64,000 bases of DNA from Dictyostelium discoideum. Taxonomy: Eukaryota. This document shows, in pieces, positions 27,537 to 64,000 of the stretch. A program made the translations under genes and the position numbers. Numbering within the stretch: position 1 is the first letter of the stretch; each line of letters opens with the position of its first letter. The notes beneath the pieces were generated by a model. That model made no database searches. It saw only the letters and a list, made by a program, of their open reading frames with translations, and was not told the origin of the DNA. The stretch is taken from assembly GCA_000004695.1 (NCBI GenBank), contig CM000150.2, forward strand, positions 224,001 to 288,000, in the 5' to 3' direction.

Positions 27537-27652
27537 CTAAACAACACTAAGAAGAGCTAATAAAACAAAAGAAAGAACAGCAATTGAAAACTTTAAGAAA
27601 GTTGTTGAAGAAGGACTTGTCGAAGAGGGTATATTTGGTTGCTGTTGAATTG

Positions 27653-27683
<31 letters not shown>

Positions 27684-27726
27684 TTGTTGTTGCTGTTGTT
27701 GTTGTAGAATTGGTTGTTGTTGTTGC

Positions 27727-27757
<31 letters not shown>

Positions 27758-28874
27758 GCTTTAAATTATTATTATTAAATTGATAATTATTTGATAATAA
27801 ATGTTGTTTTTCAGAGAATTGAGAAGCATGAATTGAAGGTAAAGGATAAATTATAGAGAAAATTTGAAGAGGATATTTTGGATTATCGATTGAGCCAATT
27901 AAAAGAAAACTAATAGTACATGGACTATCATAGATTGGATGTAAATTTTCAGGCAAGGTTAATTGTTTTTTTTCGTTATCAGTCTCGTGAATGAAAACTT
28001 GATATGGATTTGATTTTGGTATTGAGATAAAGTTTGTAGAGGCACCAAAACTTTTACTCCTCATATGATTACGATCACCAATGTACTCTACATTTGAAAA
28101 CAGTGTGGCGGCATTCACCAAACTAAAATCAACACCAACTCTAACATCTGCTGAACAATGAATAAATCTAAGTGTAGTTCTCTTTTTTAATGATGGAAAA
28201 TTAAAATTATCTGATAAAATTGTTATTGAATAATTTGATCCATCATCATCAATATCTTCATCACTATTATTATTATTGCTATTATTTTTATTATCTTCTT
28301 CCTGTTTTTGCTCTTCTTGTTTTTTAAAAATACCAGTAGTAATTAAAGTATAGTCTGTATCATTTTCAATTTGAAAACGTTTAAATTCTAAATGTTTTTT
28401 TGATTTTGAATCATACAAATCAATTTGTATTAAACCAATAGGTATTGTTATATATTCTGAAACTGATAGATAGGCTAAGTTTTTAAATGAAACACTATTA
28501 TTAAAAACTATATCAACACCATCACTTTCAATCACTGTATTAATTATTTTAATCTTTGAATATAATTTAATTTGTTCTTGTTGTTGTTCTTGTTGTTCTA
28601 CCAGTTTATCGTTATTTAAATTTAAGTTTAAAATATTATAAAAATTATTATTATTATTATTTCCGTTATTATTATTATTATTATTATTATAGTACGCGTT
28701 TACTTTTATATGTGATGATAATATTACTATTGCCAATATTATCATTAAAAAACTATATATATTCTTTTTATTTGGTATTATTATATTTATTATTGTATCC
28801 TCCGTTTTCCTTTTAAAATTAGTAACCCTATACTCTTCATTGTTAGAAATGTTTTTAATGAAAGATAATTTCAT
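27537..28874 (-). CDS. Secreted/GPI-anchored cell-surface protein, DUF4397-like domain, poly-Gln tail; single exon
   Basis: The ATG is at 28874. There is an N-terminal hydrophobic signal/anchor (YSFLMIILAIVILSSHIKVNA). The central region LRFIHCSADVRVGVDF...SIPKSNPYQVFIHETDN resembles the bacterial/eukaryotic DUF4397 repeat (RFVHASPDAP.VDV). The C-terminus is Ser-rich followed by hydrophobic FLKFSIAVLSFVLLALLSVV, typical of a GPI-attachment signal. Confidence 0.5.
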
Positions 28875-55599: not shown

Positions 55600-55608
<9 letters not shown>

Positions 55609-56611
55609 ATAAAAAATGATTAAAATTAAATTTGAGATTAATAAATAAATATTTAAAGATAATTTGAAAGAATTATTGATATTTTCAATTCCAGGATAAT
55701 TTGGATAAGAAGAATTTGGTGGAGCAGAAAAACCAGAGTCTTGACAAGGATAGAAATAGAGTGGACAAGTGAATTGGATATTACCAATTTTAACGGATTT
55801 ACCATCAGTATCACAAGTGACCCAAACAGTATTAACTTGAACTTGAAGATTTTGACCATCACAACGTGTTGGCCAACATACCATATTACTATTTGAGGTA
55901 GTTGTATCTGTGTATTCGAAACATCTACTATCTTCACCATACTTTTCAGAGATTTGAGTATTGGCCGATGCTTGGTTCGAAGCATCTACACAATATTGAT
56001 TGGATGGAATATCATAGAATGGGCAACCATCAGCAATGATGTCACCATAGGTATGAGAATCATTAAAGTGTCGATAGGCAACCAATATATCGGATGATGA
56101 TATCTTTACATTGCATACACCTTTACCAACACGAGTTGGACTGCAATATCTTTTTGAGGAATCTTGACAAAAGTAACCTGGTAAATTCCAACTCTTTTCA
56201 TTACAATCATCTAACCAATCACAACCTAATCCTTTACCCCACATCAATGGTTCAGCCAATGATGAATTAATATCAAACCAACCACTATCTTGTAATAATG
56301 CCAATGTTAAATTAGTAATTGGAAAAACTGGTGAAACATAACCCAACATATACTCTTCACCAGCTGTTCTTTTCTCCCAATGACTACCAACAGTTCCAGC
56401 TGCACCATAATCTTCCAATAATTCAAAAATTGATCCATTTCTTCGACAATTATAATGTGATTCTACAAAACTTTTAACTGCTGGTGTATTAACTGCTGGT
56501 CTTTCATAAATCCATGTTGCACCTTTTGGTGTTGTACCTGATGTTGTTTGATTTGCTCCTGGTTCAGCTATTTTTTTTTTTAAAAAAAAATAAAATAATA
56601 ATTAATATATG

Positions 56612-56642
<31 letters not shown>

Positions 56643-57837
56643 AAAAATAATTTTAAAACTTACTTCCAGTATAATAATAACCATTACCATTATATCTATT
56701 TTTAAAAGTTTTAAAGAAAGTATTTGAAAAACCTAAACCATGAGTCATTTCATGAATACCAACACGAATATATTCATTAAAAATAAAATCACTTGGTGGT
56801 GTTGATGAAACAAATGGTAAAAAATATTTTGGTGCAAAATTAATTGTTGCTGCTAATGGTCTTTCTCCCCAATTAAATACACATGGTGATGAATAAGCAA
56901 TCGTTGCTTATTATTATTAATTATTATTATTAATTATTATTATTATTATTTTAAAAAATAATTTTAGTATATTTATTATTTTTTTATTTATTTTATTTTA
57001 TTTTATTATTTTTTTTTACTTACAAGAAGCTCTAATTGGTCTTGAAGTTACAAAAACAACCATATCAGCATTTGGAATACCAGTATTAATATATGTATTA
57101 TTAATTACATATCTAAAATCACAAGTTGGACCTCTATCATGATTTAATTTTAAATTTGTAGTATATCTATCAACCAAGATCATTTCACCAAGAATATCTT
57201 GAATACTTGTGATAATATCTTTACTAATTAAATTGGCAACTTTATCACCAAGTAAATCATTTGCAGTGCAAGTGTAATTACATGGATAATAAGCACCTGA
57301 TGATACACATGCTGGTGCTACATATGAGGTTGGTGCAGCTCCAAGTAAAATAGTTTGACCAACATAATAACATGCACCTGTATCTTTTTGATTGTAAAGA
57401 TATGTTGTATCAAAATAAAATCTTAATGGTTTTCTTGGAGTTGCTGAACTTGCTTTTAATCGATAATTTGTATCCAAAAGTTTCATTCTCTCTGCATGTA
57501 AAAAATCATTTACCTCTTTATCAGTTGGTGGAACAATGATATTCTCTGCAACTTGATCATGAATACAATCATATCCTGGTAAATGTTGATGTCCATCCTT
57601 TATTATAAATCCATTCTCATCAATTCCATCAATAATTTTTGGTTGTTTTTCATTGATTGCTAATTTTTTAAAACCTTGAAAAAATCCATTATTATTATCA
57701 TTATTGGTTGATGAAAATTCCCTTTCAATCATCTGTTTATACCTATTGTTAATTATTTTCTTTAGTGATTTACCATCACTTTTGGATATTAATGATATAA
57801 TAAAAAATATCAAAAATATTTTAAAAATTGATTTCAT
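55600..57837 (-). CDS. Leishmanolysin-like zinc metallopeptidase (GP63, MEROPS M8 family), secreted/GPI-anchored; complement(join(55600..56567,56664..56906,57024..57837)), ~674 aa
   Basis: The N-terminal signal peptide is MKSIFKIFLIFFIISLISKS. Exon 2 carries the zinc-binding HEMTHGLGF (HExxH) and a downstream conserved His region. The Cys-rich C-terminal domain ends in a hydrophobic tail (LSLNIYLLISNLILIIFYLI), compatible with a GPI signal. Both introns are GTAAGT..(T/A)AG with phases verified (phase 1). Confidence 0.75.
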
Positions 57838-59494: not shown

Positions 59495-62152
59495 ATGATA
59501 AATTTTTTTAAAAAGAAAAATAAAAATTCAGGTGGGAGTACAAATAGTTCTAGTAATACAACACCATCATCGTCATTCTTTTCTTCTTCTTCAAATACTT
59601 CATCAACATCAACAAACAATAAATTATTTACATCAATTTCATCACCACAAATTATAAATAATAATAATAATAATAATAACAATAATAATAATTATAATAA
59701 TAATTTAAATAATAATTTAAATAACCCTCCTCCTCCGCCACCATATCAATTAAATAAAAATAAAATAAATAATCAAATTAATAGTAGTAGTGAAAATAAT
59801 ATAGTTAATTCACAAAGTTGTAATTTAGTAAATAGTAAAAGTAATAATACTTCATCATCAGGTAAGTCGATATCATCAGCAACATCAAGTTCTATATCAG
59901 GAGATGGTGGTGATGCAAATGGTTACAATATAAATACAGTTTCATCAAGAGGCTCAACATCATCACCTATTCAATTAATTCATCCAAATTTAGATTCTCC
60001 AAATGTAGGTGGCGGAGGAGGTGGTGGTAATAAATCAAGGATTAGAATATTTGGTAAAAATTTATCACCATCAACATCCTCATCAAAAGATAGTGGAAGT
60101 GGGTATGCTGGTGGTGTTGGTATTTTATCAGAAAAAGATATATTTCCAAATGGTGTTAAAAGGCAATTAAAAGGTGTAATGTTATTAGGTGAAGGTAATG
60201 ATGACGTTTTAATAAGAGCAAGAACTTATATAAATCAACAAGGTGAATTACATTTTACAAATGAAGATTTAGCACAATACATGTTTCCATTTGATTATGA
60301 TGAGGATTCACAGGTACCAATTCAATTGAAAATTCCAAAAATCGTACCAATGTCAAAACATGGTTTAGATAGTGACAGTGGTTCATCATCAGATGATGAA
60401 GGTAATAATTACCACCATGGTGGTATCAATAGATTCAATCATTTAAATAATAAAAACTTTTCAAATAAAACTTTATTAAAAGCAAGATCTTGTCTTTCAA
60501 ATTGGGTACCTGATTCACCATTAATCTCATCCTACAGATATCAATCTGAATCTTCAAATCTTGGTCCAATTAAACATAGTCAAATTATAAATAATAATAA
60601 AGATTTTAAAGAATTTGCAATAGAATCACCAAATTCAACTCTTAGTACAACTGATTTATTATCCAATCAATTACAACAACAATTACAACAACAACCACAA
60701 CATAATTATAAAAATGAAGAAGATAATGAAGAATCTATTAAATTTGAAAATCAAGAAAATGTTAAAACTGAAGATATTGAGAAAATAGATAAAATTAGAG
60801 TTAGTTTTGGAGAGAATGAAACTTTTGATGATATTTCTGACGTTGGTTTTTCACCAATTCCTGATAATAATATTATTAAAATAAATAAAAGTAATGAAAG
60901 TAATAAAAGTAATAATGGTTGTGGTAGTGGTAGTGGTAGTGGTAGCAATCTTTTTTCAATTCAATCACCTTCACTTAGAAATGGTTTTACAATTAGTGAA
61001 AATCTTAATAACCAATCACCAAAACAAACTACAATTCAGAGTATAGTTTCAACAACAACTACAACAACCACAACAACCACAAGTACAGCTGGCACAAATA
61101 ATAGTAATACAACCAATAATAGTATAAAACCACCAGCAACTCAATTTAGTATTTATGATTTTGTAAAACCACAATCACAACCAGAATTAAGTGGTAATAA
61201 AAAACAATCATACCATCAAAAGATACTATTTACATCATCACCAGCAGCTAATTCAATATCTCAAAATATTTCACCAATGATAACTCCAATATCTTCACCA
61301 ATCGCTCCAATTTTAAAAAATAGAAATAATTTTAATAATATGGGTAATGGAAATAAAATTTCAAAATTATTAATATCTGAAAATAATAATAATTCACAAA
61401 ATGTTACACCAAAATTGAAATCATTTAAAAATAAATTGGATAGTGAATTATTACAATCATTAGAAGCATTAATTGATTCACCACAAAATGTATCAAACTC
61501 TAATATTGATAATTGTTTTGGTACTGATTCTCCTAGATTATTATTATTGTTAGAAGAACAAAGACAACAAGAGCAAATATTGAAATTAAAAGAACAAGAA
61601 AACTTTAAAAAACAACATCAACAACTTTTAGAAAAAGTCTCAAGTGGTTTAGAAACCCTAAGAATTTCAATTCAAGATTTAAAATTTTTAGATTTAATAA
61701 ATGAATTTAATTTAAATGATCATCAAAATATAATTGAATTTCAAAAAAATAAAATTGAACAACAACAACAACAACAACAATTACAACAACAAAATAATGA
61801 AATTTTACAACAACAACAACAAATTGTCAATACAAATATTAACAATGAAGAAATCATTGATAAAGATGAAAAGGAATTGGATACAAATGATGTATCATCA
61901 TTATCTTCACTTTTATTATCACCTTCTTCTTCATCAACTTTATTATTTTCACCATGTAGTTCAAATTCAAATCTTATTGAAGATCATCCATTTGATATTT
62001 ATTCTCCACCTTTATCTTTATCAACCACTAAACAACAACAACAACAACAATTAATTTCAACAAAATCACAATCAATCACTATTGAAAAAAATAATTCAAC
62101 CCATCATTTATTTAATAATAGTTTTATTAATTTAATAAATAATCAACAATAG
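59495..62152 (+). CDS. Large Ser/Asn/Gln-rich low-complexity protein (885 aa) with coiled-coil-like C-terminal segment; function unknown
   Basis: The ATG is at 59495 and the ORF is continuous to a TAG at 62150-62152. Homopolymeric N, S, T and Q tracts are present, plus an acidic region, ENETFDDISD. A heptad-like region, LEEQRQQEQILKLKEQENFKKQHQQLLEKVSSGLETLRISIQDLKFLD, is present. No enzymatic motif is seen. Confidence 0.5.
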   Translation: MINFFKKKNKNSGGSTNSSSNTTPSSSFFSSSSNTSSTSTNNKLFTSISSPQIINNNNNNNNNNNNYNNNLNNNLNNPPPPPPYQLNKNKINNQINSSSENNIVNSQSCNLVNSKSNNTSSSGKSISSATSSSISGDGGDANGYNINTVSSRGSTSSPIQLIHPNLDSPNVGGGGGGGNKSRIRIFGKNLSPSTSSSKDSGSGYAGGVGILSEKDIFPNGVKRQLKGVMLLGEGNDDVLIRARTYINQQGELHFTNEDLAQYMFPFDYDEDSQVPIQLKIPKIVPMSKHGLDSDSGSSSDDEGNNYHHGGINRFNHLNNKNFSNKTLLKARSCLSNWVPDSPLISSYRYQSESSNLGPIKHSQIINNNKDFKEFAIESPNSTLSTTDLLSNQLQQQLQQQPQHNYKNEEDNEESIKFENQENVKTEDIEKIDKIRVSFGENETFDDISDVGFSPIPDNNIIKINKSNESNKSNNGCGSGSGSGSNLFSIQSPSLRNGFTISENLNNQSPKQTTIQSIVSTTTTTTTTTTSTAGTNNSNTTNNSIKPPATQFSIYDFVKPQSQPELSGNKKQSYHQKILFTSSPAANSISQNISPMITPISSPIAPILKNRNNFNNMGNGNKISKLLISENNNNSQNVTPKLKSFKNKLDSELLQSLEALIDSPQNVSNSNIDNCFGTDSPRLLLLLEEQRQQEQILKLKEQENFKKQHQQLLEKVSSGLETLRISIQDLKFLDLINEFNLNDHQNIIEFQKNKIEQQQQQQQLQQQNNEILQQQQQIVNTNINNEEIIDKDEKELDTNDVSSLSSLLLSPSSSSTLLFSPCSSNSNLIEDHPFDIYSPPLSLSTTKQQQQQQLISTKSQSITIEKNNSTHHLFNNSFINLINNQQ

Positions 62153-62361: not shown

Positions 62362-63251
62362 TTAAAATGGTTGTTGTAATTCATCTTGAAAGAATTTAAT
62401 TGAACCTTCAAAAACTGTTACAGAAGGACAACTAACAAAAACTTTATCATCTTCTTCTCTCCATTCAACTTCTAAAATACCACCATCCATTTGAACATTT
62501 GCTTTTCTATTATTTTTACCACGTAAAACCCCACTAACCAAAGCGGCAGCAGCACCAGTTCCACAAGAATTTGTTACACCAATACCCCGTTGCCAAACTC
62601 TAACACGTAGTGAATCTCTAGTTTTCACTTGTACGAATTCAACATTTGTCTTTTGTGGAAATATTGGATGTGATTCAATAACTTTACCATAGTAATCCAT
62701 TGGAAATTCATCAACATTCTCCAAATGTAATACACAATGAGGATTACCCATTGAAACTAATGTTGAATTAATAAAATGACCACCACATTGAATTACTTTA
62801 CTATATTCATTATATGATGAATTGGTTGATAATAATACTCTACCAAATGAATTTGATAAATCATTATTATTATTAATATTAATAATATTATTATTTAATT
62901 TAAAGATTGGACATTGTTGAAAAATATTTGAGTCGATTTGAAATTGATTTATATTTGGATGTTGAAAATTACCACCACTACTACCACCATGATGATCAGA
63001 TGTTTTCAAAACTAATGGATTACCTAAACTAACTTTACTCCAAAGTGTTTTTGCATTATTTAATGGATGTTGAGGAATGGTCATACATTGTTGTATACCT
63101 GCTATCGTATAAATACTAATACTTCTAGATTCAAATAAAAGATAAGGTGTTTGATTTAATGTTTTTAATCTATTTCTTGAAAAAAATGGTTTTAAATCTT
63201 CATTATGATGTGGTTCTTGATTATTATTATTATTATTATTATTATTATTTA

Positions 63252-63339
<88 letters not shown>

Positions 63340-63906
63340 TTGTTCAATTTCAATATTATTATTTTGATTATTTTGATTGTTTTGATTGTTTTGACTGTTT
63401 GTTCGATAAGATTTTAAATTATAATCTACAATATATTTGCAAACGCAAGAAACACCAGTTGTACAATTTTCAGCAATACTACCATCAGAATTAAAAATTA
63501 AAAGTTGAAAGTCAGTTTCATTCAATTTATCATTTGGAGGTGGTGTTAATACCAGTGTATTATCAGCACCAACGCCTTGTTCTCTATCACATAATCTTTG
63601 AGCAATGTTTTGTAATACTTGAATTGATGGTCTAAATGATGAATTATTATATTCTACCCTAAGATTATCAATATGAAATATAATAAAATCTTGACCACGT
63701 ACATGCATCTTACAAAATTTTAATATGACCGATGATAACAATAATTCATTTTGTTGTTGTTGTTGTTGATATTGTTGTTCTTGTTCTTGTTGTTTTTGAT
63801 AAAAAATTTGTCGATTCAAATTATTTTGTTGTTTTTGTTGTTGTTGTGTTGGAATTTGTGATGATGATAAAAATGAATTATGAAATGGGCATTTAGTTAT
63901 ATCCAT
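62362..63906 (-). CDS. Diaminopimelate epimerase (DapF)-like protein (DapF/PhzF/proline-racemase fold) with long poly-Asn/Gln insertions; single exon, 514 aa
   Basis: DapF hallmarks occur in order. FCKMHVRGQDFIIFHIDN matches F.KMHG.GNDF. NSDGSIAENCTTGVSCVCKY matches [20 protein letters not shown], with the first catalytic Cys. SMGNPHCV is identical to E. coli VSMGNPHCV. GIGVTNSCGTGAAAALV matches GERSGAETLSCGSGACAAV, with the second catalytic Cys. The ATG is at 63906. A roughly 100-residue (AAT)n poly-N insert lies between the two half-domains. Confidence 0.65.
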
Positions 63907-64000
63907 TATCTCCTATATATATTAATTGATTTTTTGATTTTTTTGATTTTTTTGATTTTTCGATTTTTTTTGATTTTATTAATTTTATTTGTGTGTATGT

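Follow-up and report, generated by a model that had tools for sequence, protein, structure and literature searches.

A 64,000-nucleotide stretch of Dictyostelium discoideum DNA (contig CM000150.2, positions 224,001 to 288,000; hereafter the window) was found to carry on its minus strand a complete single-exon gene for a 514-residue homologue of bacterial diaminopimelate (DAP) epimerase, DapF. Dictyostelids possess two or three genes of this family, designated A1, A2 (in the D. discoideum group only) and B, and sequence comparisons indicated that the window gene is of type B, a divergent extra copy and not the amoeba's ordinary diaminopimelate epimerase. The interpretation we favour, with an estimated probability of about 0.55, is that of a functional Dictyostelium nuclear gene whose product may be a neofunctionalised cytosolic epimerase that works without pyridoxal phosphate through two thiols (Cys148/Cys448), the divergent B member of an amoebozoan DapF family.

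Gene structure and DapF fold

The gene coincided exactly with a single ATG-to-stop open reading frame (ORF) in the ORF list, and its product matched the Pfam family PF01678 (DAP_epimerase) in two stretches (9.8e-42) and the NCBIfam model TIGR00652 (DapF) with a score of 182.4 bits against a cutoff of 114.65. Sequence searches of the PDB returned the DapF structures of Anabaena (9mro; 4e-51), Arabidopsis (3ejx; 6e-46) and E. coli (4ijz; 1e-39), and those of Pseudomonas and H. influenzae were also matched. AlphaFold2, supplied with an alignment of 76 sequences, gave a model with a mean per-residue confidence (pLDDT) of 81 and a predicted template modelling score (pTM) of 0.78, with residues 1-17, 197-230 and 307-353 as the sole low-confidence stretches. 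When this model was compared with the PDB using Foldseek, DapF structures ranked on top (E ~1e-28; template modelling score normalised to target 0.82-0.86) and the best 26 matches were all DapF or DcsC, the O-ureidoserine racemase DcsC at 2e-23, while proline racemases, PhzF, YddE and HisR followed at ~1e-10 to 1e-12. A PhzF-like identity was considered and rejected, as PhzF structures scored ~18 orders of magnitude worse than DapF, the cysteine pair is kept where PhzF would have the acid/base Glu type, and no match to PF02567 was found in the window protein by Pfam. Profile matches and predicted structure therefore point to a bacterial-type DapF-fold enzyme that is not PhzF-like, in agreement with the DapF assignment of the initial annotation, which had been made from the sequence alone.

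The two DapF halves are accompanied by a glutamine-rich N-terminal extension and two long insertions (Table 1). The first insertion as a whole spans residues 166-259 and comprises 94 residues, of which 52 are Asn, with longest pure Asn runs of 29 and 10; in the ORF as a whole, AAT encodes 89 of the 93 Asn residues. The initial annotation had put the length of the insertion at ~100 residues and had placed it between the two half-domains; the alignment located it in the loop after the Cys148 helix, at about E. coli residues 88-92, within the N-terminal domain. An intron in place of the poly-Asn tract was ruled out by in-frame insertions and deletions relative to the D. citrinum orthologue and by its colinear gene model. 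Inserts differing in length and sequence occupy the same two loops across the sampled dictyostelid orthologues, which supports the earlier proposal that the gene has been resident for a long time. The HPxN..TLW.KV insertion in the core strands is common to type B, the amoebozoan A copies and some bacterial DapFs (P0009, P0310), and a KCPFHN motif at the extreme N-terminus is common to the window protein, D. citrinum and D. purpureum. Much of the N-terminal extension was modelled as one long helix with pLDDT 81-95. Directly upstream of the ATG lies a tandem repeat of TTGATTTTT, which may be a promoter-region element or merely reflect AT-rich slippage.

Table 1. Window coordinates of the DapF-like gene, its parts and its neighbours
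Feature	Coordinates	Strand	Basis
Complete single-exon coding sequence, 514 aa plus stop; divergent type B DapF-family paralogue	62362..63906	-	ORF; PF01678 in two stretches, TIGR00652; colinear 501-aa D. citrinum gene model
Glutamine-rich N-terminal extension, residues 1-57; not in bacterial DapF	63736..63906	-	alignments; AlphaFold2 helix 21-56; dN/dS 0.18
Predicted long helix in the extension, residues 21-56	63739-63846	-	AlphaFold2
First DapF half, residues 58-165: GQDF (Q72 for N11), distal-site N139, Cys148, T149/T150 for G74/N75	63412..63735	-	alignments, PDB matches; dN/dS 0.018
Catalytic Cys148 codon	63463-63465	-	alignment
Asn-rich low-complexity insertion, residues 166-235, (AAT)n-encoded, predicted disordered, neutral evolution	63202..63411	-	pLDDT <50 at 197-230; dN/dS 0.81, in-frame indels vs D. 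citrinum
Conserved B-specific segment, residues 236-259, DL.PFFS...SPY..F	63130..63201	-	in B orthologues, not in A paralogues or bacteria (alignments); pLDDT 74-89
Core strands, residues 260-302, IYTIAG..HPLNNAKTLWSKVSLGNPLVL, including HPxN..TLW.KV insertion	63001..63129	-	alignment
Second variable disordered insertion, residues 303-358 (~56 residues), after MG-P strand	62833..63000	-	pLDDT <50 at 307-353; length differs among orthologues
Second DapF half, residues 359-514: SMGNPHCV (N388, H390), N421, WQRG (Q439 for E208; R440), Cys448	62365..62832	-	alignments; 22 synonymous/0 non-synonymous differences vs D. citrinum (dN/dS 0)
SMGNPHCV, residues 385-392	62731-62754	-	alignment
Q439 codon (E208 position)	62590-62592	-	alignment
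Catalytic Cys448 codon	62563-62565	-	alignment
Tandem repeat (TTGATTTTT) x 7.3	63926-63991		
885-aa ORF, convergent with the DapF-like gene	59495-62152	+	syntenic 964-aa D. citrinum gene
Two Peptidase_M8 (leishmanolysin) ORFs	55600-56418 and 57016-57837	-	matches to separate parts of Peptidase_M8
445-aa ORF with DUF4397 domain	27537-28874	-	PF14344 (2e-13)

Active-site substitutions under purifying selection

Both catalytic cysteines were present and aligned unambiguously, C148 (in ENCTTG) with C73 and C448 (in SCGTG) with C217, which settled the possible misalignment of the second cysteine region that the initial annotation had raised. Its statement that all four DapF signature blocks are present held for the cysteines and for SMGNPHCV, but three blocks proved to be altered, as GNDF reads GQDF, CGNG reads CTTG and WERG reads WQRG in the window protein. 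These positions were compared with 116 bacterial and plant DapFs and then with 393 non-amoebozoan homologues. N11, G74, N75 and E208 were each found in 116/116 sequences of the smaller set and in 385/385, 389/390, 390/390 and 390/390 sequences of the larger one, respectively, while the window protein has Q72, T149, T150 and Q439 in their place. The passages of PMC8225329 (summarising Pillai et al. 2006) and PMC12039745 that describe the H. influenzae enzyme assign G74, N75, G218 and S219 to binding of the reacting alpha-carboxylate and N11 to that of the reacting alpha-amino group. In the same descriptions (PMC8225329, PMC12039745), E208 together with Q44 contacts a substrate amino group and a bridging water, and N64, N157, N190 and R209 bind the distal carboxylate. 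Thus the ligand set for the reacting alpha-amino and alpha-carboxylate groups and the substrate amino group (N11, G74, N75, E208) was not matched by the window protein, and the distal-carboxylate ligands were all kept, as N139, N388, N421 and R440, along with H159 (H390), G218 (G449), T219 (T450), C73 and C217.

The E208Q replacement occurred in all B orthologues that cover this position, while among B orthologues N11Q, G74T/S and N75T were restricted to the window protein, D. citrinum and D. purpureum. Both cysteines and His159 were found in every complete B orthologue, the exceptions being the truncated Acytostelium sequence (P0007) and the Heterostelium album gene model (P0008). The latter is a 343-residue model whose N-terminal half is unalignable with DapF and lacks Cys73 and whose C-terminal half is well conserved, an anomaly due either to a gene-model error or to partial decay in this species. 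Judged from these alignments, type B is not a canonical DapF and its substrate pocket appears to have been rewired.

Ratios of non-synonymous to synonymous substitution (dN/dS) were calculated between the window gene and its closest available B orthologue, a single-exon D. citrinum gene of 501 residues with 95% identity over aligned residues. The whole-gene ratio was 0.10, but the values differed greatly along the sequence (Table 1): the first catalytic half had 22 synonymous and two non-synonymous differences, the second lacked non-synonymous differences altogether, and the poly-Asn tract, where in-frame insertions and deletions were also seen, evolved almost neutrally. Purifying selection acts strongly on the core of the enzyme, and the unusual active-site residues are no exception. 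The suggestion in the initial annotation that the gene might be a relic was therefore rejected, as was any pseudogene reading, since ratios of 0.018 and 0 in the catalytic halves are those of a maintained gene.

Paralogues, origin and genomic surroundings

Paralogues were sought by scanning 1.84 billion representatives exhaustively with a profile, by cluster names and by two word-index searches, one of them seeded with the P. violaceum match. The window gene proved not to be the sole DapF homologue: the group-4 Dictyostelium species D. citrinum and D. purpureum each possess A1, A2 and B, and each dictyostelid genome in which a B orthologue was found also gave an A copy (for example P. violaceum, T. 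lacteum, A. subglobosum and H. album). A copies were also found in C. fasciculata and, as an A-like sequence (P0121), in the protosteloid amoeba Clastostelium; a search seeded with this Clastostelium copy gave no further eukaryotic relatives closer than bacteria. A1 had the consensus residue at 15/15 active-site positions checked (examples are P0299 of D. discoideum, P0296 of D. citrinum, P0297 of D. purpureum and P0125 of P. violaceum) and lies at a different locus from B in D. citrinum, D. purpureum and D. discoideum. The D. discoideum A1 gene has unrelated neighbours and an intron, the latter a further observation on the residence of the family. Members of A2 (P0306, which is DDB_G0270030 of D. 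discoideum AX4, with P0303, P0302, P0304, P0307 and P0309) keep the proximal site and E208, but have N157 replaced by V or G and, in most members, H159 by Q. By alignment, the distal-site changes of A2 are complementary to the changes of B in the amino and alpha-carboxylate ligands.

Dictyostelid orthologues are already named diaminopimelate epimerase in UniProt/NCBI. The literature searches turned up no account of the paralogue family, none of the active site of type B and no mention of DDB_G0270030, and the Mastigamoeba and Trepomonas papers said nothing of DapF. DapF homologues as such are thus already annotated in Dictyostelium; what appears to be undescribed is that they form a family of paralogues whose active sites have diverged.

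Phylogenetic trees were constructed by neighbour-joining with Kimura distances, from 110 taxa (268 columns, 300 replicates) and from 191 taxa (200 replicates), in addition to an earlier tree in which B was the only dictyostelid type. Type B formed a clade with 100% bootstrap support, A together with Clastostelium likewise received 100%, and the union of A, B and Clastostelium received 87% with 110 taxa and 88% with 191 taxa. The amoebozoan copies also share an expansion of the loop that follows the Cys73 helix and a wider spacing between F13 and R36, of 27-61 residues (32-37 in most), where the median for bacteria is 22 and plants have 23; this corresponds to a shared insertion of ~10 residues. 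In the earlier tree, Arabidopsis joined the DapFs of Anabaena and Geminocystis in a cluster separate from the dictyostelid clade. With 110 taxa the two plant sequences paired at 100% bootstrap, and one run (191 taxa) put the plant/cyanobacterial group near the amoebozoan clade with 2% bootstrap. The amoebozoan clade thus appears distinct from plant DapFs, and given the weak neighbour-joining backbone this should be taken as absence of support for plastid nesting and not as its strong rejection. The bacterial sister of the amoebozoan clade differed between runs, with bootstrap values no higher than 54% (54% in the B-only tree, then 20% and 11%).

The most economical reading of these trees is that an amoebozoan ancestor had a single, ancient gene of bacterial type, which later duplicated. 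The horizontal acquisition and repurposing proposed in the initial annotation accordingly remain plausible in respect of a bacterial-type origin and of the four replaced contact residues, and its expectation that the gene is neither plastid-derived nor PhzF-like agrees with our results; the sequences formed an amoebozoan clade of their own. A candidate for a donor-like lineage is P0009, the top-scoring bacterial match in both searches seeded with dictyostelid proteins, which carries the insertion as HPxN..TLWVKV. Its gene is part of a dapF-dapA-dapB operon in the metagenome-assembled genome of an uncultured bacterium (GCA_964505175.1, contig CAZDHI010000059.1, L002, 915-3489), and its nearest named relatives, from Binatia, Syntrophobacterales, Deltaproteobacteria and Nitrospirae, are just 51-55% identical.

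The window has a G+C content of 23.5% and its other ORFs encode MutS, PARP, an amino-acid permease, a protein kinase, a DHX29-like helicase and leishmanolysin; on account of these neighbours it is a eukaryotic, Dictyostelium-type chromosome segment. A collection of 15 billion sequences contained no identical copy of the 514-residue protein; a neighbouring kinase ORF has an exact match in NCBI assembly GCA_054883475.1. The D. citrinum orthologue lies in the same neighbourhood, with a convergent low-complexity gene of ~900 residues followed by a Peptidase_M8 gene. In the window the corresponding 885-residue ORF has an extremely high content of Asn, Ser and Gln, lacks a Pfam match and is syntenic with a 964-residue D. 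citrinum gene (L083:7696-10590), and the two ORFs that match separate parts of Peptidase_M8, presumably exons of one gene, have their syntenic counterpart at L083:12156+. Further away lies an ORF with a DUF4397 domain. This domain is mostly bacterial, and the ORF could be a second horizontally acquired gene of the window.

Metabolic context and competing interpretations

Lysine belongs to the essential amino acid set of animals, and Dictyostelium has no peptidoglycan. D. discoideum is reported to have 11 essential amino acids, in a set strikingly similar to that of animals (PMC12923814), from which we infer that it is a lysine auxotroph. Dictyostelium and Polysphondylium sequences reportedly group in a diaminopimelate decarboxylase tree (PMC3846528), and in lysine-auxotrophic Crithidia DAP substitutes for lysine via DAP decarboxylase (PMC3846528); together these observations make terminal DAP-to-lysine salvage a ready explanation for the canonical copy. 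By analogy, salvage of prey-derived DAP would explain A1 and not B. No dapA, dapB or lysA was found among the scanned ORFs of the 64-kb window. A D. discoideum gene annotated as 'diaminopimelate epimerase' is represented on published microarrays and differs in its response to two P. aeruginosa strains (PMC2474670).

We propose that an ancient bacterial-type gene entered an amoebozoan ancestor and then duplicated into a small DapF family, in which A1, whose active site is the standard one of DapF, would likely act as a diaminopimelate epimerase in DAP-to-lysine salvage from the cell walls of eaten bacteria. Type B keeps the distal-carboxylate pocket (N139, N388, N421, R440) and has exchanged its ligands for the reacting alpha-carboxylate and for the amino groups of the substrate (E208Q in all B orthologues that cover the position; within the D. 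discoideum group also N11Q, G74T/S and N75T), and would still deprotonate and reprotonate the alpha-carbon with its two cysteines by two-base epimerisation. Because the amino and alpha-carboxylate ligands are replaced and the distal pocket is kept, the substrate would be expected to resemble DAP at its distal end and to be recognised otherwise than free LL- or meso-DAP, for example through a neutral (acylated) amino group, and it may be a DAP-like compound obtained from bacterial prey. A more specific proposal, which we regard as tentative and on balance unlikely, is that type B, Dictyostelia-specific in the collections searched, is a cofactor-independent epimerase of a kind so far unrecognised, acting not on free DAP but on modified or peptide-bound DAP (gamma-D-Glu-meso-DAP, Tri-DAP or other N-acyl-DAP) from digested peptidoglycan; the neutral amide of the amino group in N-acyl-DAP would match the family-wide change of Glu208 to Gln with the distal carboxylate pocket kept.

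Several points weigh against neofunctionalisation as set out here. TIGR00652 is an equivalog model whose cutoff the protein exceeds, so that curated annotation would name it DapF. Gln for Glu or Asn is conservative in its hydrogen bonding and the alpha-carboxylate is partly held by backbone amides, so that epimerisation of DAP itself could survive the substitutions. The monophyly of A and B rests on neighbour-joining trees with long branches, for which long-branch effects are possible, and by raw identity bacterial DapFs (37%) and A copies (36-39%) are equally close to B. Finally, the pattern of a kept distal and a changed proximal site has no characterised precedent, the racemase PddB showing the opposite; the argument from pocket to substrate is accordingly weak.

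The first of these points bears directly on an alternative that is possible although doubtful, namely that type B is an ordinary diaminopimelate epimerase (EC 5.1.1.7) that together with DAP decarboxylase turns LL- and meso-DAP of prey peptidoglycan into lysine, the paralogues being redundant or differing in regulation or kinetics. The best structural matches, which are all bona fide DapFs, the intact catalytic dyad and distal-carboxylate ligands, and the reported grouping in the DAP decarboxylase tree, documented salvage in Crithidia and presumed lysine auxotrophy given above would all fit such an enzyme. It is harder to reconcile with the replacement of four contact residues that are invariant or nearly so in 393 homologues, and with the coexistence of a fully canonical A1 in the same genomes. 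In addition, strong purifying selection keeps the new residues fixed, which points to a new optimum and not to drift.

Loss of catalysis would be a further way to account for the altered proximal residues, which position the reacting centre, and for long disordered inserts and a glutamine-rich N-terminal helix that are unusual in a metabolic enzyme. A dead relic, or a non-enzymatic DAP-binding protein that retains the fold, such as a sensor of bacterial cell-wall fragments, is nevertheless improbable, as dN/dS values of 0-0.02 in the catalytic halves exclude a decaying relic and a pure binding protein would have no need of the thiol pair that, with His159, every complete B orthologue retains (apart from the two incomplete sequences noted above). 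Very improbable, in our view, are the remaining candidates, a eukaryotic DapF of plastid or cyanobacterial descent, a PhzF-like protein, and bacterial DNA contaminating the assembly. The best PDB sequence matches to the Anabaena and Arabidopsis enzymes and the placement at 2% bootstrap are what a plastid origin can draw on, in comparison to the separate, well supported amoebozoan and plant groupings; the PhzF matches were far weaker than those to DapF; and contamination was excluded by Dictyostelium codon usage, (AAT)n tracts, eukaryotic flanking genes and synteny with D. citrinum.

Neofunctionalisation of type B would be of interest as there are few cofactor-independent racemases and epimerases, sequence is a poor guide to what they act on, and experiments have overturned the annotation as 'DapF' in several cases (HisR, PddB, DcsC). 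A peptidoglycan-free bacterivore that apparently makes no lysine nonetheless maintains two to three DapF-family genes under strong selection, which offers a defined case of enzyme neofunctionalisation after probable bacterial gene acquisition and a handle on how amoebae use the DAP-containing walls of their prey. If the more specific proposal of modified or peptide-bound DAP as substrate is true, type B would be a eukaryotic enzyme dedicated to bacterial cell-wall debris, and A1, A2 and B would represent a three-way functional radiation of a transferred gene. The automatic annotation of the B gene as diaminopimelate epimerase should meanwhile be treated as provisional.

In comparison to characterised DapFs (EC 5.1.1.7; H. 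influenzae, E. coli, Anabaena 9MRO and Arabidopsis 3EJX), type B shares the two-domain pseudo-symmetric fold and the Cys/Cys dyad at the N-termini of two helices with His159, but differs in N11Q, G74T, N75T and E208Q, in its 57-residue glutamine-rich extension, in insertions of ~94 and ~56 residues and in the lack of a DAP-operon context. A1 and the Clastostelium copy P0121 resemble B in their KYI.D and M(P/D)GG motifs, in the ~10-residue insertion after GNDF and in the expanded loop after the Cys73 helix, while A1, at 30-39% identity to B, has an insertion of its own between H159 and N190 that B lacks. PddB, DcsC (O-ureidoserine racemase, 7VDY) and the histidine racemases HisR/CntK are likewise DapF-fold two-thiol enzymes that act on other substrates. 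PddB, a 2,4-diaminobutyrate racemase, has its distal-site residues replaced and its proximal residues and E208 kept (PMC8225329), and HisR, a histidine racemase annotated as a DapF homologue, is proposed to keep the Asn, Glu and Gly-Asn equivalents (PMC11602996); type B shows the reverse pattern and is far closer in sequence to true DapFs than to PddB, DcsC or HisR. Bacterial-type genes of the late DAP pathway also occur in other eukaryotes without de novo lysine synthesis, as with the DAP decarboxylase of Crithidia and the DapF that Herpetomonas acquired from Bacteroidetes (PMC3846528), and this precedent accounts for the keeping of a canonical A1 but not for that of a second paralogue with an altered active site.

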